From: a virus
IMG/VR virus record: IMGVR_UViG_3300047480_000598
Location: 1-64,000 of that record
Direction: 5' to 3' (one strand)
Length of the DNA stretch: 64,000 nucleotides
Made by a program: the position numbers and the translations under genes
Shown here: positions 17,266 through 27,323 of the stretch, one piece after another
Position numbering within the stretch: the first letter of the stretch is position 1
Layout: the number at the start of each line of letters is the position of its first letter
The notes under the pieces: generated by a model
What the model was told of the DNA's origin: nothing
The model's database searches: none
What the model saw: only the letters and a program-made list of their open reading frames with translations

Positions 17266-18720
17266 CTAATTAAAAACTTTAACACCGTAATGGTGTTCGA
17301 ATGCTATTGCATCTTGATATGTATTAACCATCGGTTGTCCTTTAATATTTAAACTAGTGTTAAGTAATAAAGGACATCCAGTTTTCTCATACCATATTTC
17401 TAACAATCTTCGAATATGTCGATCGTCATTAGTTCCTACCGTTTGTACTCTGCTAGTACCGTCTTTGTGAATAATTGCAGGATATAAATTAGGATGTTTA
17501 CATCGAACAGTATATTGCATATATCTATGATCGTTACTTATTAGTTCGAAAATTTCGTCAGCATATTCTTCAAGTATCATAGGAGCAAACGGTCTAAATT
17601 CTTGCCGTTGTTTTATATTATTAACTCGATCTTTAATATCAATACCTCTAGGATCAGCTAATAAACTTCTATTACCGAACGCTCTAGGACCAAATTCAGC
17701 TTTGCCTCTTGCTACCCCACAAATTTGATTTTGTAACAAATATTCAACAATTTCTTCTTCAGTACTAGAATAGCCCATATCGTATCCTAAAAATGGACCT
17801 GGCCAATGCACATGTTTCCCTAAGTGAGCTAATACCGAACCCATGCTAGATCCTGCATCACCAGGATTTGGCATGATCCATACATTGTCAAATAATTTAT
17901 GTGCTATATCATTTGCTGCACAATTTAATGCACAACCGCCCATTAATACTAAATTTTTACTTTTACTTAATTTACGAGCACGTTGTAGTACTGAGTAAAA
18001 TAATGCTTCATAAGTGCTCTGGGTTCCTTTTGCAACGTCGAAATATCTACTAACTGGCGTATCAAGTCTCCAATCTAAACATCCTCGATGTAGATTCTTT
18101 TTAAAAGTTATTTTTTCAATATTATCAACAAAATCATCGAGGATAGTGAAATTGTAATTTCTATTACCATATGCAGCCATTCCCATTAGAATATACTCAT
18201 CTTCTAACGGTTTAAGTCCTAATCTCTGTGTCATAGCAGAGTACCAAAGTCCAATACTATGCGGGAACGATTGGCTCCACTTCTTCTTTAATTTACTATT
18301 TTGAGCGTCCCAGATAGTCGTAGTTTCAAATTCTCCGATTGCATCTAATACAACAATACATGCATTATCAAATTTGCTAGTATAGTATCCCCCAGCTGCA
18401 TGGCTAAGATGATGTGATGTAAACTTAACAGGGGCAGTAATTCCGTATGATTTAAGATAATTAACAATGTTATTATCTTTCCATTTCCATCCCTGACCCG
18501 CAAATAATTGTCGTATTGTTTTAAGATAGGGATTTTCATACCAAATAATTTCTTGAGGGTCTCCAAAAGTTAATGCATATTGGATAAGATCAGGATGCAA
18601 ATTACGATCATTTTTAACTCGACTAAATCTTTCGCTATGACTTGCAAATATTATTTTTTCGTCATAGAACACAGTAATCGCTGCATCATGACTATTTGCC
18701 GATATACCCCAAGTAATCAT
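17266..18720 (-). CDS. Carbamoyltransferase, CmcH/NodU/TobZ family
   Basis: SHDAA, ERFSRVKND, HHLSHAA, DAIGE, GGCALNC, PGDAG, EFGPRAFGNRSLLADPR, FRPFAP, DGTSRVQTV, LLNTSLN. Confidence 0.92.
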   Translation of the reverse strand: MITWGISANSHDAAITVFYDEKIIFASHSERFSRVKNDRNLHPDLIQYALTFGDPQEIIWYENPYLKTIRQLFAGQGWKWKDNNIVNYLKSYGITAPVKFTSHHLSHAAGGYYTSKFDNACIVVLDAIGEFETTTIWDAQNSKLKKKWSQSFPHSIGLWYSAMTQRLGLKPLEDEYILMGMAAYGNRNYNFTILDDFVDNIEKITFKKNLHRGCLDWRLDTPVSRYFDVAKGTQSTYEALFYSVLQRARKLSKSKNLVLMGGCALNCAANDIAHKLFDNVWIMPNPGDAGSSMGSVLAHLGKHVHWPGPFLGYDMGYSSTEEEIVEYLLQNQICGVARGKAEFGPRAFGNRSLLADPRGIDIKDRVNNIKQRQEFRPFAPMILEEYADEIFELISNDHRYMQYTVRCKHPNLYPAIIHKDGTSRVQTVGTNDDRHIRRLLEIWYEKTGCPLLLNTSLNIKGQPMVNTYQDAIAFEHHYGVKVFN

Positions 18721-20931: not shown

Positions 20932-21306
20932 ATGGCAAGATTAACAGATAATATAGAACACAGTTTACCTTTTATTTCAGTATTAACCTATGGTGGGGAA
21001 GAATATGTCGGGATCATTATTAATCAAGATCAATTCGTTACCTGCTTTTATGATTACAATGCAATAAAATCGACAGAAGAAAAATCGGCTTTCCTAAGCA
21101 TCGGTGAAACATGGTGGTGGGAATCAAATCGACAATTTCCTATTTCTATATTTTGCAGAGATCAAATACAACCCTTTCAATATGCTATTAGAACATTTAA
21201 TAGCAAAGATGTAAAAATTACCCTCGGACCTGTAGTAAATTTGATGAATCTAACTCTTAAAAGGGTTAAAAGAAAATCTGTACAGTTAGTTCGTAGGACT
21301 CGTTAA
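20932..21306 (+). CDS. Hypothetical protein
   Basis: 124-aa ORF with WWWESNR motif; fills the gap between minus-strand genes. Confidence 0.7.
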   Translation: MARLTDNIEHSLPFISVLTYGGEEYVGIIINQDQFVTCFYDYNAIKSTEEKSAFLSIGETWWWESNRQFPISIFCRDQIQPFQYAIRTFNSKDVKITLGPVVNLMNLTLKRVKRKSVQLVRRTR

Positions 21307-21878
21307 CTATTTTCTATACTTATACTTTCGCAAATTAGATTCATCTGCACAACTATTGCATGTGCGTATGCAATAGCATGTGCTTTCTTAAAATAATACT
21401 CGTTACTCGTCGGATTGGTCCATACTTCGTTCATCACTGTTTTCCAGTCCTGACCAATCAGATGGCGTTTTGCGGGCCGTATAATAGCGAGAACCGCGGC
21501 GAGCTGTTCCATTGAACGTGGCTTCATCTTCCTCAGGATGGTACCATGTCCGTTGACGTGAAATAGTAGATTTGTAAAGTCGTCTTGTTCGAGAAGATCC
21601 CATAGTGGCTCCGTATTCATTAATTCAAGTAAATGTTCTTTACTTCGAACATCTTCATATAGTTTAACGTTTAAAAAGTCAATTTTGAAATAGCCGCGAG
21701 ATTCTCCTTCTTTGTAATCTAAGGTACTAAGATTAGTAGAAGCATCATGCGGTATTGGTTGAAAGTAAACACCGGTATTGTGGGGAATTAATTTTTCATC
21801 AGCTGTTCGTGCTGCGACAATATGTTTAACATATGATAACGCTTTGGTACGATCAGCAAAATCGATATCAATATCCAT
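21303..21878 (-). CDS. dnaE: Miniature DNA polymerase III alpha (DnaE)-like catalytic core
   Basis: In order: DIDIDF, HNTGV, GYFKIDFL, KPRSMEQLAAVLAIIRP, YYFKKAHAIAY, matching C-family palm/finger motifs with all three catalytic Asp in 191 aa. Confidence 0.8.
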   Translation of the reverse strand: MDIDIDFADRTKALSYVKHIVAARTADEKLIPHNTGVYFQPIPHDASTNLSTLDYKEGESRGYFKIDFLNVKLYEDVRSKEHLLELMNTEPLWDLLEQDDFTNLLFHVNGHGTILRKMKPRSMEQLAAVLAIIRPAKRHLIGQDWKTVMNEVWTNPTSNEYYFKKAHAIAYAHAIVVQMNLICESISIENS

Positions 21879-22072
21879 TAGTGTTTTGTATCTGATTCAA
21901 ACAAAATTAACGGAAGAGATTCGCCTAAATATTCTGCATATTCGTTGGCATCTTCGAACGATTCAAACCCTGTAATCTTTAAGTATATAGAATTATCATC
22001 TTGATCAACAGCAATTTTTAAATCTAACGGCACTCCGTCAGAAATAGGTGGGGGTGTGATATAATTGTTCAT
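21878..22072 (-). CDS. Small acidic hypothetical protein
   Basis: 64-aa ORF translationally coupled to both neighbours. Confidence 0.6.
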   Translation of the reverse strand: MNNYITPPPISDGVPLDLKIAVDQDDNSIYLKITGFESFEDANEYAEYLGESLPLILFESDTKH

Positions 22073-22764
22073 AAATTAGATTCCTTAATTATCTGTTTCA
22101 CTAAACTTACATCTGCTGGGAGAGTTTTGAACTTCTTAAGCCAATATGGCAAATCAATCATTGTACTTATGCCTGCAAGTTGTTCGTCGTTAAACTTCTT
22201 TAACATTTCTTTGCCATTCGGACAATTTAACACTAACCATGGACTAATTTTTCCATCTTTTATATCATACATTGCTCGATTAAGGCTAACATATAAGAAA
22301 TATTGATTCCATGGACATTGATTAGAATCTGCCCATTCAAACATATGATTGAGACTTCTTTGTACAGCAGTTTCGACTGTTTCGGTTTTAATTAGGTGCA
22401 AAATGTATTTTTCGTACAATTCATCTCTACACCAGTGATCTAATTTAACACCACTAGTTACAACATATTCAATAAATTTTGTCGGATACATTGGGTTAAC
22501 ATTACTAACAAAACTTCCAAATTTAACAAAAGCATTGTAATAAGGGCTTTTGCAAAAATCTTCATATGTTTTATCTTCTGTTTTATGCTGAGTCTTTTTA
22601 TAAAATTCCAAATAAGTCGTAAATCCAATAACAACATGTTTTTCGGTTCTAGCTAGAGCTCTTCTTTTTTGCTCGCATACATGAACCGAAAGAGTTTTTT
22701 CTTTTGTGAATTTATGATCACAATATTTGCAAGTAAATGGTTTAGTTGACATTAAAGATATCAC
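22069..22764 (-). CDS. Hypothetical protein with N-terminal C2H2/C2HC-like zinc finger
   Basis: FTCKYCDHKFTKEKTLSVHVC. Confidence 0.7.
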   Translation of the reverse strand: MISLMSTKPFTCKYCDHKFTKEKTLSVHVCEQKRRALARTEKHVVIGFTTYLEFYKKTQHKTEDKTYEDFCKSPYYNAFVKFGSFVSNVNPMYPTKFIEYVVTSGVKLDHWCRDELYEKYILHLIKTETVETAVQRSLNHMFEWADSNQCPWNQYFLYVSLNRAMYDIKDGKISPWLVLNCPNGKEMLKKFNDEQLAGISTMIDLPYWLKKFKTLPADVSLVKQIIKESNL

Positions 22765-23237
22765 TTTAGTGCTTTGTCAATTGCCGAGTCATCCATCCCT
22801 AACTCTTTAGCTATTTGATACAGTTCTTTATTTGTATATTTAGAACATAAAAGATCTATTTCTTGACTGTTTTTATCCGGATATAGTTCTTCGATAAATC
22901 TAATCTTTTTATTTTCTGATTTTCTCTTCTTATGTCCGATCCATTTATGAAAGAATCTCTTTTTACTATCGTGACTACACATGCACAATAGTAACCATAA
23001 TAGTTTGGGATGTTTTTGCAAGTCAAACCAATGCTTATTAAAGTATTCGTTTACAGTTAACACAAAATGTTCTTGTATATGTCTTGGTTGCCCTTCTGCA
23101 TTGCTAATAAATCTATTGAGAATATACAATTCACTTTTGAGCAATTTTTGATTGGCTTCATCCATTGCATCCCATAGTTCTCGTAGATTTTCGTCAACAG
23201 CTTGAATTTTTTCAGTTAATTCTACTTTATCTTCCAT
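22761..23237 (-). CDS. gp62: Putative clamp loader small subunit (T4 gp62-like)
   Basis: YILNRFIS..VNEYFN..KRFFHKWI..IEELYP pattern, size and replication context. Confidence 0.5.
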   Translation of the reverse strand: MEDKVELTEKIQAVDENLRELWDAMDEANQKLLKSELYILNRFISNAEGQPRHIQEHFVLTVNEYFNKHWFDLQKHPKLLWLLLCMCSHDSKKRFFHKWIGHKKRKSENKKIRFIEELYPDKNSQEIDLLCSKYTNKELYQIAKELGMDDSAIDKALK

Positions 23238-23241
23238 TGTA

Positions 23242-23748
23242 TTAAAAAAGCCTATCTAGATATATAATTTCGTTTTGACGACTAATTTCCTTAACAAAAT
23301 ATGCACATAGCGGATTTGTAGTATGTTTGCTAGGTACTGCTAACAATTGCCCGCTTTTCATCTTTGGAAAGTACCACTTAACGTCATTATAAAAGTTTAC
23401 TATCTCGATACGTCGAAACTCAAGTCTAAAGGAGCTCAAGGGATTATACATCAATGCTTCAAATCCCCTATCATTTAAACTAGTTAAAGGTAATATTTCA
23501 ATGTCGTTTCCGGTTGCACTATCGCCGACTGCAATACACCAATCAATAGGCATTGTAATCTCGTCGTCTCCGATCTTTAGAACCATAGCCGGACTGTTAA
23601 ATGATTCAAGAAATATTAACGGAACAAAAAAGAAATCTGGATCTTTAGGATCACTATTGTCAAGTACTGCAAATCTAGTACTATCGTCGACTTCGTCGGG
23701 CAAATCGTTTAAAGAAAACGATACATTATCAAGGGTTAATATATTCAT
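23242..23748 (-). CDS. Hypothetical beta-rich protein
   Basis: 168-aa ORF in the UvsW operon. Confidence 0.7.
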   Translation of the reverse strand: MNILTLDNVSFSLNDLPDEVDDSTRFAVLDNSDPKDPDFFFVPLIFLESFNSPAMVLKIGDDEITMPIDWCIAVGDSATGNDIEILPLTSLNDRGFEALMYNPLSSFRLEFRRIEIVNFYNDVKWYFPKMKSGQLLAVPSKHTTNPLCAYFVKEISRQNEIIYLDRLF

Positions 23749-23751
23749 TAA

Positions 23752-25245
23752 TTATTTCCAATCTATTTTTTGTACTGTAAAAGGATAGTTAGCTTCTTTA
23801 TAAAACTTTTTTCTTTCGGTTAGATGTTTTTTTGCGTATTTGCATGTACTAGTAAAATCCCAAATATTTACAAAGTCTTTGTCTTCGGCTTTTCTAATAC
23901 CTCTTCCGATACTTTGTATAACTCTAACAAAGCTCTTTCCAGGTTCAATAAGGACCAAGTTAAAGATGCGAGGAATATTAATACCAACGGCAGCAACACC
24001 ATATGTAGCAATAGTGATTTTACTATTACTCGTTTTGAAATCGTCATAGTCTTCTTTCCGATCTTTTGTTTTTATTTTTCCGGATATAAACGCTACATCT
24101 GGATTCTCATTCAATATACTAAACGAATTACTTAAGTGTGCTTGTAAAAAATTACCAGTATCAATTAAGTTAACTAGCACTAGAGTATTACCTGTTTCGG
24201 CAATTTTCTTAATTTGATTAGACATATATTCTAATCTTTCGTTATTTGTTACTAGATATCTGTTTTCTTCGTGATAATTCTTAAAATCAAGCACATCTAG
24301 TAATTGCAATACGTTTACATGACAGTTAGATAATACCCCTCTATCTTGTAATTCGGATGCAGATATACCACCAACTACAGGCCCGATACTAGCAAAGATA
24401 CTCTGAGATTCAAATGCTTCTTTAGGTATTGTACCCGTTAATCCCCATCGTATAGGAGCATTAGACAAATTTTTTGTTAGAAGATTTTTTAAAACTTCGG
24501 CTTTTGCTTGATGTACCTCGTCAACAATAACTGCATTTACGTTATCTAAAAATTCAGCTAAAGTTAAAATTTCATGTTCGCTTGCTTTAGATTTTTTATC
24601 TAGAACATTTAAACTTTGCCATGTACATATAGTGTGTGTTTTAAATAGATCTTTTCGATCACCATAATAAACACCAACATCTAACCCTACATTAATAAAA
24701 TCTTCTTCTGTCTGTTCCACTAGGCCTTTGTTTGGAACTATAACAATTGTTCTTCCTACCGATTCGCAAATTTGTGCTAGTGTAGCTGTTGTAATAGTTT
24801 TCCCTGCGCCGGTTGCAATTTGTTGTAGTGATTGCGGATTATCAATAAATCGATTAATTGCTTCAACTTGATAATCACGAAGCATGATAGGTTGGCCTGC
24901 TTTTTCGTGTCCTTGTGGCCAAACTTTTCCTTGATCGTGCCAGTAGTTTTCTGTAATTTTTTTAAAGTTTAAATTACATGGTTTTCGATGATCGTCAACA
25001 TCTTCTACATGAATTCCGTTCTTACTCAATGTTTCTAATATTAATTCTAAACTATTTAAATAGCCAGAACCGCCCAATCCGAATAGTGTTACACTTCCGT
25101 CCCATCTTCCCAATTTGTACGAAGGTCGATATCTTGCAGTTGGGTCCACATATTTAAATTGTGATACTAATTTTTTTCGTATATCTAACGGAAGTCCTTC
25201 AAATTTAATGTTTACTTCATCTTTTATTATTAGTTTAACACCCAC
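23752..25245 (-). CDS. uvsW: UvsW-like SF2 DNA helicase
   Basis: WDG, LRDYQ, ATGAGKT, DEVH, GLTGT, GINIP, QSIGRGIR; likely GTG start at 25245 after GAGGA (ORF track 25302). Confidence 0.9.
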   Translation of the reverse strand: MGVKLIIKDEVNIKFEGLPLDIRKKLVSQFKYVDPTARYRPSYKLGRWDGSVTLFGLGGSGYLNSLELILETLSKNGIHVEDVDDHRKPCNLNFKKITENYWHDQGKVWPQGHEKAGQPIMLRDYQVEAINRFIDNPQSLQQIATGAGKTITTATLAQICESVGRTIVIVPNKGLVEQTEEDFINVGLDVGVYYGDRKDLFKTHTICTWQSLNVLDKKSKASEHEILTLAEFLDNVNAVIVDEVHQAKAEVLKNLLTKNLSNAPIRWGLTGTIPKEAFESQSIFASIGPVVGGISASELQDRGVLSNCHVNVLQLLDVLDFKNYHEENRYLVTNNERLEYMSNQIKKIAETGNTLVLVNLIDTGNFLQAHLSNSFSILNENPDVAFISGKIKTKDRKEDYDDFKTSNSKITIATYGVAAVGINIPRIFNLVLIEPGKSFVRVIQSIGRGIRKAEDKDFVNIWDFTSTCKYAKKHLTERKKFYKEANYPFTVQKIDWK

Positions 25246-26375
25246 ATGTTCCTCGGTTCGATAATCGGCTCTTTCTCTGTATAAGAAATAATACAGTCGC
25301 AATTTGCCGCATAAATTGCTGTTTTATTGTGTCGGAGATAATCATTGATTGAAATTACACTCATAGGTTTCCAGTCATTTGATAACATAAATTTAGGTAA
25401 TTTTGAAGGTTGTATACCTACAACTTGTGTGGTGGTATCTAACTGTTGATTATATCGATAATTTCCAATTTTTTGATTAAATTCTTTCCCATGTATATCG
25501 TTGTTGCTCAATCTAAAATAAATGCCAACGCCTGTAGTAATGTTATTTTTACTTAATGCATCATGTAATCTATCCAATTCAGCCAATGTCTTTTTTGGTT
25601 CTCTATGATCAAATACTACTAATAAGGGGAGTCTTTTTAACTCAATTAATGAGCCAATAATACCCCCTAATTCATATTCTGTAGAGTTTAACCATAGTTT
25701 TGATTGACCTCTGTATGCAATCTTTTCAGTAAGAGATGTTGGTTCGATCTTATTGATGTAGTATTGATATCTAGTACTACGATCAGCTATTAAATTTGTA
25801 GTTAAGGGAGTATTAATACCTAAATCTTCACCAATAATTTTTTGGAAATTTTGATGTTTTATAGTATTAATACGATATTGATCTACAACTTCTTCTTCTT
25901 TCCAAGAATCGATTAGATCATAATATTCTTTTAATTTTGGATCAATTTCGAAATTATGCGGGATCAATGCAGAAACAAGATCCTTTATATTTCTTTCAGT
26001 TAAGTCAGCATGATAAAATCGTCCTTGAGATTTTAATGATATTATACTCTTAGTTAAGTTATTCATCAAGTTTTTAAGTGTAGTCGAAAACGTAAATTCG
26101 ATTACAATGTTATTATCTTCTATATAGAGTTTTTTAACCATATTTACAAATCTAAAAGGTCTAGACCACATAGGATTATCAAGTAAATTAATATCAATAT
26201 TAGTATGTTGATAGTTATTTTTAAGAATTTTAACTAGTAACTTTGCCTGATTTTCGGTAAGAAAGTCGGGCGTTAGTATTCTCTTACATAAATCATTAAT
26301 TAATTTTACATCTCTAGAATCCATGTTTTTATCATCTAGTATAATGTTTATTAACGAATAATCGATATAATTCAT
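25230..26375 (-). CDS. Hypothetical protein upstream of UvsW
   Basis: 381-aa ORF with a sigma70-like promoter directly upstream. Confidence 0.7.
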   Translation of the reverse strand: MNYIDYSLINIILDDKNMDSRDVKLINDLCKRILTPDFLTENQAKLLVKILKNNYQHTNIDINLLDNPMWSRPFRFVNMVKKLYIEDNNIVIEFTFSTTLKNLMNNLTKSIISLKSQGRFYHADLTERNIKDLVSALIPHNFEIDPKLKEYYDLIDSWKEEEVVDQYRINTIKHQNFQKIIGEDLGINTPLTTNLIADRSTRYQYYINKIEPTSLTEKIAYRGQSKLWLNSTEYELGGIIGSLIELKRLPLLVVFDHREPKKTLAELDRLHDALSKNNITTGVGIYFRLSNNDIHGKEFNQKIGNYRYNQQLDTTTQVVGIQPSKLPKFMLSNDWKPMSVISINDYLRHNKTAIYAANCDCIISYTEKEPIIEPRNMWVLN

Positions 26376-26411: not shown

Positions 26412-27323
26412 TTACAGCTTTGATTTCCAGATATTAATTGCTCGATCTAATCCTTCATTTAACTCAACTTTTGGCTTCCATCCTAAAATTCGTTCAGCCT
26501 TTGCAGACGACGAATTAAGAACATAAATTTCACCGACTCTAAATGGTTTTTTGTCCCAGTTAATAGTGCCTTTCCAATTTAACTTTTCTGCTATAATGTT
26601 AACTAATGTTTCGATGTTTAATGCATTAGCAGGACCTGTGCAAAAAATTTCTTTTTTTGCTAACTCCTCTTTTTTGAGCACAGTTTCGTATAAATCTAAC
26701 AAATCATCGATCCATAAAAAGTTTCTATAAGGCTTTTTGTATCCTAAATTTATTTCATTTGGATTTTTTAGCATTTGTGTTATAACTTGTTCTACTACAA
26801 AGAAGTCGTTATCTGATCTGCCATATGTATTAGTCTGTCTTAGAATACAATACGGAAAGTTATATGCTCGTCCTGCATATTCTAAATACTTTTCACATCC
26901 TACTTTAGCAACAGCGTACGGCGCATTAGGATGTTGGACGGTTTCTTCATCAAATACAGGAATTTCGCATTCTTTTCCGTCTCTAATTAAATCACTTTCC
27001 GGTTGCCATCCATATGATTCCATTGTTGAACTAAACACAAACAATTTTAGGTTCTTAAGTTGTTTAGCTGCTTCAACAATGTTAACTGTTCCTACATAAT
27101 TAACTGAACTAAAACTTGATTGTTCGTAAAAGCTCTTTTCTACTTCTGTTCTAGCTGCTAAATGTATAATATAATCTGGATCGACATATTGTAATCTAGC
27201 ATTTACTGCTGTTTCGTCTAATAAGTCTTGATCTAAGTCAAAAACTTGATATTTTCCTTCTAATCTTTCTTTTAAATTGGAACCAATAAATCCGCTTAGT
27301 CCGGTTATTAAAACTTTCTTCAT
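26412..27323 (-). CDS. NAD-dependent NDP-sugar epimerase/dehydratase (extended SDR)
   Basis: ITGLSGFIG, IIHLAA, SSTMESYG, YAVAK (YxxxK), RNFLWIDD, LGWKPK; AGGAG RBS. Confidence 0.88.
   Translation of the reverse strand: MKKVLITGLSGFIGSNLKERLEGKYQVFDLDQDLLDETAVNARLQYVDPDYIIHLAARTEVEKSFYEQSSFSSVNYVGTVNIVEAAKQLKNLKLFVFSSTMESYGWQPESDLIRDGKECEIPVFDEETVQHPNAPYAVAKVGCEKYLEYAGRAYNFPYCILRQTNTYGRSDNDFFVVEQVITQMLKNPNEINLGYKKPYRNFLWIDDLLDLYETVLKKEELAKKEIFCTGPANALNIETLVNIIAEKLNWKGTINWDKKPFRVGEIYVLNSSSAKAERILGWKPKVELNEGLDRAINIWKSKL

Follow-up and report, generated by a model that had tools for sequence, protein, structure and literature searches.

An uncultured phage fragment encodes what is very probably the C-terminal subunit of a split minimal C-family DNA polymerase

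Iyer, Anantharaman, Krishnan, Burroughs and Aravind (Viruses 2021; PMC7824862) predicted from sequence that jumbo phages of group 2.2 encode a split minimal DNA polymerase III (Pol III). In the passages of that article that deal with it, the C-terminal protein is described as 'Mg2+- and DNA-template-binding', its retained part being read as a template-strand-binding domain; the split enzyme accompanies a family-B polymerase (PolB), possibly cooperating with it in the synthesis of one strand or in repair, and the small form is read as a model of the ancestral enzyme (PMC7824862). We found no experimental study of the split enzyme in the literature, and a 2026 review of jumbo phages makes no mention of DNA polymerases. 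Here we analyse a 191-codon open reading frame (ORF) on the minus strand of a 64,000-nucleotide stretch of viral DNA (the window; positions 1 to 64,000 of IMG/VR virus record IMGVR_UViG_3300047480_000598), part of a contig of 162,335 bases that is estimated to be about 44% complete and has a GC content of 35%. We conclude that the ORF very probably encodes the C-terminal subunit (C-half) of the two-protein minimal C-family polymerase of group 2.2 jumbo phages, and that its partner (N-half) belongs to the protein family phrog_11127. Group 2.2 comprises RaK2, 121Q, GAP32, PA5oct, Atu_ph07 and SCTP-2, together with many uncultured relatives.

The closest described relatives of the ORF are the C-subunits of the group 2.2 split Pol III, such as gp16 of Escherichia phage 121Q and the 'DnaE-like DNA polymerase III alpha' of Sinorhizobium phage Phosso (XYS97594.1), with which it agrees in length, start at the DxD strand, conserved residues and gene neighbourhood. 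Nothing essential differs; the copy in the window comes from an uncultured, low-GC phage fragment, on which its partner gene and PolB are not found. Bacterial DnaE (E. coli, 2hnh; Thermus, 2hpi and 3e0d; M. tuberculosis, 5lew) and PolC (3f2b) share with the ORF the palm strands with the Asp triad, the core fingers helices and the motifs KxDxL, LA..LA..RP and Y.F.K.H, at 15-24% identity. In contrast to these enzymes, the ORF product is about one sixth the size and lacks the PHP, thumb, clamp-binding, helix-hairpin-helix (HhH), OB and tau-binding parts, and in the phage system the first third of the palm is carried by another polypeptide. A C-family polymerase is also made from two distant genes in the intein-split DnaE of cyanobacteria, where a split intein splices the products to full-length alpha. 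Unlike these, the phage halves show no intein, and the junction between them is a clean cut within the palm.

The ORF is uninterrupted, its start being the first ATG that follows an in-frame stop codon. A preliminary description, made from the sequence alone, had reported an intact gene with all catalytic and nucleotide-binding motifs in order, and each of these was found in its place: D2-I-D4-I-D6-F, H33-N-T-G36-V, K65-I-D67-F-L, P120.S122...L126A127..L130A131..R134P135 and Y161.F163.K165.H167A168..Y171. In window coordinates, the gene and its motifs lie as follows.

21303-21878, minus strand: putative C-terminal (Mg2+- and template-binding) subunit of a split minimal Pol III alpha-like polymerase, equivalent to E. 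coli DnaE 401-784 except that the thumb and part of the fingers are missing.
21861-21875, minus strand: codons of D2-I-D4-I-D6, the strand with two metal-binding Asp residues (E. coli D401 and D403), assigned by conservation and by a structural alignment starting at E. coli 401.
21768-21782, minus strand: codons of H33-N-T-G36-V, the HxxGV palm motif after a vestigial thumb, assigned by conservation of H33 and G36.
21672-21686, minus strand: codons of K65-I-D67-F-L, which include that of the third catalytic Asp (K553 and D555 in E. coli), assigned by invariance and by a hidden Markov model alignment of KiDlL on E. coli VKFDFL.
21474-21521, minus strand: codons of P120 to P135, for two fingers helices that close with R134-P135 (about 625-640 in E. 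coli), assigned by conservation and by alignment to E. coli ...ALVALFRPG, ending at 641.
21366-21398, minus strand: codons of Y161 to Y171 (YYFKKAHAIAY), the counterpart of the E. coli fingers motif Y754-GFNKSHSAAY764, aligned to E. coli 741-768.

We take HxxGV to be the equivalent of E. coli HAGGV near residue 511, in line with the span of the structural alignment. In the Y.F.K.H motif, E. coli K758 and H760 presumably contact the incoming deoxynucleoside triphosphate (dNTP) and its sugar.

In sequence searches the ORF matched phrog_11778 ('DNA polymerase', 197 positions) with E 8.8e-68, residues 1-185 falling on positions 7-194. It also matched positions 578-679 of phrog_405, the family of full-length DnaE (E 2.4e-6). 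In the PDB, a profile built from 95 homologues matched DNA polymerase III alpha chains only; on E. coli 2hnh it covered residues 538-641 and 741-768 (E 1e-5), with the LA..LA..RP helices at about 625-641 and Y.FKKsHA..YA at 754-765. Because of the PHROG match, these DnaE-only profile matches and the structural match given below, we regard the resemblance to DnaE as beyond chance. In PHROGs and in many GenBank records the two halves already carry the names DNA polymerase or DNA polymerase III alpha. By tblastn the C-half is encoded in 96 jumbo-phage records, the copies of cultured phages being at most 52% identical (33-52%) to the one studied here, and the 8 kb around the gene gave no megablast match in the phage collection. 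A protein 81% identical to the ORF product, P0002, is encoded on a contig of 375 kb. A search of clusters at 90% identity returned at least 8000 candidates of 105-335 residues, all with E <= 0.001, and at the same threshold 403 clusters at 50% identity were found, nearly all of 180-215 residues.

The fold of the C-half agrees with these matches. An AlphaFold2 model computed from the alignment of the 95 homologues has a mean predicted local distance difference test score (pLDDT) of 97.2 and a predicted template modelling score of 0.89. C-family polymerases take the first 17 places among its Foldseek matches (E about 1e-3; template modelling score, normalised by the query, about 0.41-0.46), and all of the best 16 places in VIA-align (Z 9.0-9.4, root-mean-square deviation 3.2-4.0 Å, 183-187 residues aligned), where the top unrelated chain reaches only Z 3.6. 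VIA-align places ORF residues 1-189 on E. coli DnaE 401-784 (Z 9.2); the corresponding regions are 462-841 in Thermus DnaE, 420-811 in M. tuberculosis DnaE1 and 972-1296 in PolC. Since the structural alignment spans E. coli 401-784, the ORF product, as modelled, covers the stretch of alpha that begins at the DxD strand and ends halfway through the fingers. Structure prediction had been put forward in the preliminary description as a check on its assignment, and the model does align to the DnaE palm and fingers. The reductions proposed there are also borne out. The thumb, which it had put at ~25 residues, amounts to 26 residues between D6 and H33, against about 108 between D403 and H511 in E. 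coli; in the fingers, about 18 residues replace about 100 (E. coli 642-740); and the PHP, HhH, OB and clamp-binding regions are unaligned, with no room for them in 191 residues and no further Pfam domain in the ORF. These differences had been called 'precise internal deletions'. The ORF is indeed reduced relative to DnaE, but deletion is only one of two evolutionary readings, the other being that of Iyer et al., in which the small form is ancestral.

The assignment to the palm also needs to be narrowed. The Asp-bearing palm strands are present, but the N-terminal third of the palm, with its Gly-Ser phosphate-binding loop, is outside the ORF, because the ORF begins at the DxD strand. A regular-expression search found no G[RK]GS-type motif in the ORF, nor one with polymerase context in the six frames of the 162-kb contig. 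A nucleotidyltransferase core of the Pol-beta-like type requires a Gly-Ser loop ahead of the DxD strand. Lacking the GRGS loop and the first palm helices, the ORF product would therefore not be a complete nucleotidyltransferase on its own.

We found these missing elements in a second phage protein. A search with phrog_405 over the whole genomes of Phosso and 121Q revealed a second ORF of 177-180 residues, matching positions 360-436, which belongs to phrog_11127, a family likewise labelled 'DNA polymerase' with a typical size of ~168 residues. In 121Q the N-half and C-half are gp56 and gp16. Proteins of phrog_11127 end ...VWGVGRGSSVASY...EFLR, and the C-termini of N-halves read ...GVGRGSSVASY...L(D/N)..EFL(R/N/K). 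In bacterial DnaE (P0286, P0287) the corresponding sequence is ...GPGRGSGAGS...FERFLNPER..PDFDIDF; the N-half stops, and the C-half starts, at the FERFLN/PDIDIDF junction. Residues G134, G136, R137, G138, S139 and S140 of the N-half (GRGS loop) are invariant in relatives. In a model of the N-half of G001, an IMG/VR relative of the phage studied here (pLDDT 89.7), residues 61-168 align to E. coli DnaE 271-393, with Z 8.4-10.6 against C-family polymerases and 2.5 for the next unrelated chain. Since the N-half aligns to 271-393 and the C-half to 401-784, the two together are, as modelled, E. coli alpha 271-784 minus the thumb and the fingers segment of about 100 residues. Residues 1-60 of the same N-half (L099:4001-4180 (+)) matched no structure in the PDB list. 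In the complex prediction presented below they touch C-half residues 39-47 and 61-64, and on this model they could replace a missing DnaE element. In G001 the N-half gene is followed by genes for a GroES-like protein, a MazG-like pyrophosphatase, a gp44-like clamp-loader subunit and dCMP deaminase (L099:4762-7350 (+)). Both halves are thus placed in replication or nucleotide-metabolism neighbourhoods, though far apart.

The two halves occur in the same phage genera. By tblastn the N-half was found in 109 phage records, compared with 96 for the C-half. Fourteen of the 109 are Bacillus phages, in which the matches listed are annotated as full-length DnaE or PHP-domain proteins. Counts by genus (N-half/C-half) are 34/34 in Escherichia, 11/11 in Pseudomonas, 8/8 in Salmonella, 8/8 in Erwinia and 10/11 in Klebsiella phages. 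When split, the two genes are never adjacent in any record or contig where both were located; the distance between them is 31 kb for 121Q, 34 kb for RaK2, 116 kb for SCTP-2, 182 kb for Atu_ph07 and about 224 kb for Phosso. In the IMG/VR relatives G001, G002 and G004, whose C-halves are 65-69% identical to the one in the window, the distance is 160-185 kb, and G001 and G004 also encode a PolB of ~890 residues.

In addition, three natural fusions (P0200, P0273 and P0274), 78-81% identical to one another and from three different metagenome samples, join an N-half, a linker of about 10 residues and a C-half in a single protein of 375-376 residues with a precomputed PF07733 match; L097:1066-2193 (+) is an example of the fused gene. 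Their C-terminal 190 residues are homologous to the ORF at about 36% identity, and the fused gene shares with that in the window its convergent downstream neighbour (a phrog_11637 homologue in L097, E 1e-6). We found no mention of fused forms of 375-376 residues in those parts of the text of PMC7824862 that were available. In a quick midpoint-rooted tree the fusions form one clade (Shimodaira-Hasegawa-like approximate likelihood ratio support 100) among split C-halves, with enclosing supports of 88-93. This placement suggests, from sequences, that the fused form is a secondary fusion, the root and supports of the tree not being strong enough to settle it. A combined alignment for the fused form (A3) was discarded; the N-halves in it were misplaced (11-18% identity).

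Prediction of a complex between the C-half from the window and the N-half of G001, which are proteins of two different phages, with a separate alignment for each, gave an interface score (ipSAE) of 0.91 in three runs, compared with 0.49 for the best control. In calibration, 58 of 80 solved complexes reached the mark used for this score, as did 2 of 110 mismatched pairs. At least 98% of the contacts agree between runs, and the pLDDT of the partner does not fall below 92. C-half residues 5-7, in the DIDID strand, are in contact with N-half residues 133-134, in the strand before GRGS, and at least 150 contacts bury C-half residues 1-8, 39-47 and 164-177. One suggestion of the preliminary description, that the ORF encodes one subunit of a split polymerase, thus finds support in co-occurrence, natural fusions, the predicted complex and the fold of both halves.

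The same evidence bears on whether the 191-residue protein works alone, as a stand-alone nucleotidyltransferase or end-processing enzyme without the N-half. Apart from the three fusions, all members examined encode it in a gene of its own, with its own start and at a distance from the N-half; it folds confidently by itself (pLDDT 97), and no N-half was found on the contig. Nevertheless, it does not have the Gly-Ser phosphate-binding loop, the defining element of a Pol-beta-like core; the loop is carried by the N-half, whose counts in the same phage genera nearly match those of the C-half, which forms one chain with the C-half in three proteins and which, by prediction, completes the sheet through the contacts described above. 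We therefore consider independent action of the protein highly improbable. A stand-alone enzyme that makes signals or modifies other molecules, another suggestion of the preliminary description, is disfavoured by the same lack of the GRGS loop and first palm helices.

Selection on the C-half is strong. D2, D4, K65, D67, R134 and P135 are invariant in the 95 homologues, down to 28% identity, and D6, H33, G36, P120, A127, A131, I133, K164, H167 and A172 are conserved in at least 90% of them. The ratio of nonsynonymous to synonymous substitution rates (dN/dS) has a median of 0.14 (range 0.04-0.26) over 174 pairs with 0.05 < dS < 1.5 among 73 C-half genes from IMG/VR. Judged from these sequences, strong purifying selection maintains a functional gene and extends to its catalytic residues. 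The preliminary description had proposed that the catalytic Asp residues are intact and selected for, with relaxed selection or lost Asp residues in homologues as the contrary outcome; neither was seen. These figures also bear on another explanation, in which the ORF is a non-catalytic remnant of a captured host dnaE, retained for a structural or regulatory function or to act as a decoy for factors of the host replisome. In favour of this, the ORF is much smaller than DnaE and reaches none of the curated DnaE cut-offs. Against this stand the invariance of the three catalytic Asp residues and K65, the low dN/dS, and the fact that what is absent is precisely the set of regions through which alpha contacts host partners (PHP for epsilon, the beta-binding motif and the tau-binding C-terminus). 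We find a remnant barely credible.

Several observations weigh against a two-protein polymerase. In profile searches the ORF missed the cut-offs of DnaE models, with 15.5 against 22 bits for PF17657 (DNA_pol3_finger) and 14.5 against 434 bits for TIGR00594, and a Pfam profile search gave no PF07733 match in it. The N-half was not found on the 162-kb contig (about 44% complete) with PF07733, phrog_11127 or the Phosso N-half protein, and neither was PolB with PF00136. The interface of the predicted complex lies within one chain in solved DnaE, and a score obtained across two genomes may reflect that likeness. Finally, every characterised C-family polymerase holds DNA with thumb, clamp-binding, HhH and OB elements, none of which the pair possesses, and this makes processive synthesis doubtful.

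The absences from the contig are, however, expected of a fragment, because the genes are separated by distances on the scale of 160-185 kb in relatives. The preliminary description had proposed a search of the genome for PolB and other DnaE pieces. The contig holds neither; phrog_405 matched the C-half ORF only, and a six-frame regular-expression search for GRGS-, GS..GS- and FERF-type motifs gave no N-half candidate. Among the relatives, the N-half is found in G001, G002 and G004, and PolB in G001 and G004. For this phage, we infer from the comparison that the partner gene lies in the missing part of the genome. In an attempt at collinearity, one protein from the right end of the contig mapped to G004 at 67 kb and a left-end protein matched nothing; this rough extrapolation faintly hints that PolB and the N-half lie beyond the right end.

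A two-protein polymerase would work as follows. The C-half would bring the catalytic carboxylates D2, D4 and D67 with K65, and the fingers helices with R134, K164/K165, H167 and Y171, and the phrog_11127 protein of ~168 residues would supply in trans the first palm helices and the triphosphate-binding GRGS loop. The last strand of the N-half is predicted to pair with the DIDID strand, which on the model would rebuild the Pol-beta-like nucleotidyltransferase core. Such a heterodimer would be an active DNA-templated dNTP polymerase, probably auxiliary to the T4-like family-B replicase, for short-patch synthesis in priming or in recombination-dependent replication and repair. The location of the gene between those for a UvsW-like helicase and a primase suggests this auxiliary role in priming or recombination. 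A more specific proposal is that the pair, or the 375-residue fusion, is the smallest working C-family polymerase and divides labour with PolB, either extending primase products (as Pol alpha does) or filling gaps in recombination-dependent replication driven by UvsX and UvsW; taken as a whole, this is an unlikely scenario.

Alternatively, the heterodimer may be real without being a templated DNA polymerase, acting instead as a template-independent or specialised nucleotidyltransferase on DNA ends, in priming or to make a nucleotide product. The loss of the thumb, of about 100 fingers residues and of all C-terminal DNA- and clamp-binding modules would fit such an activity, as would the complete T4-like PolB replisome that these phages already own and the location of the N-half among nucleotide-metabolism genes (MazG, dCMP deaminase). 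Yet the fingers that are retained are the conserved helices with R134, K164/K165, H167 and Y171, whose equivalents face the incoming dNTP and the template in ternary complexes of DnaE and PolC. Moreover, the C-half gene sits in a replication and recombination cluster of conserved order, and Iyer et al., in the passages on this protein, see a template-strand-binding domain in the retained part (PMC7824862). A non-templated activity thus appears to us improbable, and we favour templated synthesis by the two-protein polymerase.

The neighbourhood of the C-half gene forms a T4-like block, with genes for a gp32-like single-stranded DNA-binding protein, UvsX, UvsY and a UvsW-like helicase, four small phage-specific genes and the C-half gene, beyond which lie a convergent gene for a 124-residue protein, a structural protein gene and a primase gene. 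The order of the block is identical in 121Q and Phosso. The genes flanking the C-half directly are the following.

21878-22072, minus strand: gene for a strongly acidic protein of 64 residues, with its stop codon overlapping the polymerase-subunit ATG (TAATG).
22069-23748, minus strand: three co-oriented, tightly packed genes for proteins of 231 (possible C2H2 zinc finger), 158 and 168 residues, between the UvsW-like helicase and the polymerase subunit.
20932-21306, plus strand: convergent gene for a protein of 124 residues (phrog_11637), overlapping the 3' end of the polymerase-subunit gene by 4 bases and found at the same position in Phosso and 121Q.

The stop of the 64-residue protein gene and the ATG of the polymerase subunit share base 21878, which confirms the translational coupling noted in the preliminary description. 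Homologues of the 64-residue protein are encoded directly upstream of the C-half in L014, L041, L057 and L059 (E 1e-14 to 1e-17); none was found upstream in L012 or L017, and none was detectable in 121Q and Phosso. We considered this protein as a universal third subunit and rejected it, since it is conserved only in some near relatives. The genes for the 231-, 158- and 168-residue proteins belong to phrog_11058, phrog_11758 and phrog_11279, all labelled 'unknown function'; they are phage-specific and occur in the same order in 121Q and Phosso. The three proteins match no Pfam or NCBIfam family, and Atlas returned viral hypothetical clusters only. The label 'gp62-like', given earlier to one of the upstream genes, was not upheld, as the small upstream genes match no clamp-loader subunit or other named family in Pfam, PHROGs, NCBIfam or Atlas.

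A possible proofreading partner is encoded in the same cluster of 121Q, where gp9 is a DnaQ-like exonuclease (RNase_T, E 6.7e-15). PF00929 was found in G002 and weakly in Phosso, and not in the contig studied here, G001 or G004. The position that this DnaQ/epsilon-like gp9 takes in 121Q is occupied in the window by an ORF of 381 residues (25230-26375, minus strand), between an epimerase gene and that of the UvsW-like helicase, with no PHROG match and only one Pfam match, below threshold. Its 3' end overlaps the annotated TTG start of the helicase, and the true helicase start is therefore probably further downstream. Two further genes lie inside the replication and recombination block, a Nol-like carbamoyltransferase gene (17266-18720, minus strand; phrog_1601, E 8.6e-97), where 121Q has a gp41-like helicase gene following the primase gene, and a nucleotide-sugar epimerase gene (26412-27323, minus strand; phrog_540, E 3e-56). 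These two enzymes might bear on DNA or surface modification. Outside the window, the same contig carries a single ORF of 4865 codons (G000:C1:127482-142079 (+)), flanked by other large ORFs.

The split enzyme itself has already been described; the present analysis adds a residue-level mapping of both halves onto DnaE, the natural fusions, selection figures and a supportive complex prediction. The ORF is therefore properly filed under a known, computationally predicted phage family, as half of a catalytic core and not as a new stand-alone enzyme. Members of this family abound in metagenomes. If our interpretation is correct, a two-polypeptide core of ~360 residues would be by far the smallest C-family polymerase, and could offer a tractable model for the active site of the bacterial replicase, its working, its origin and its evolution.

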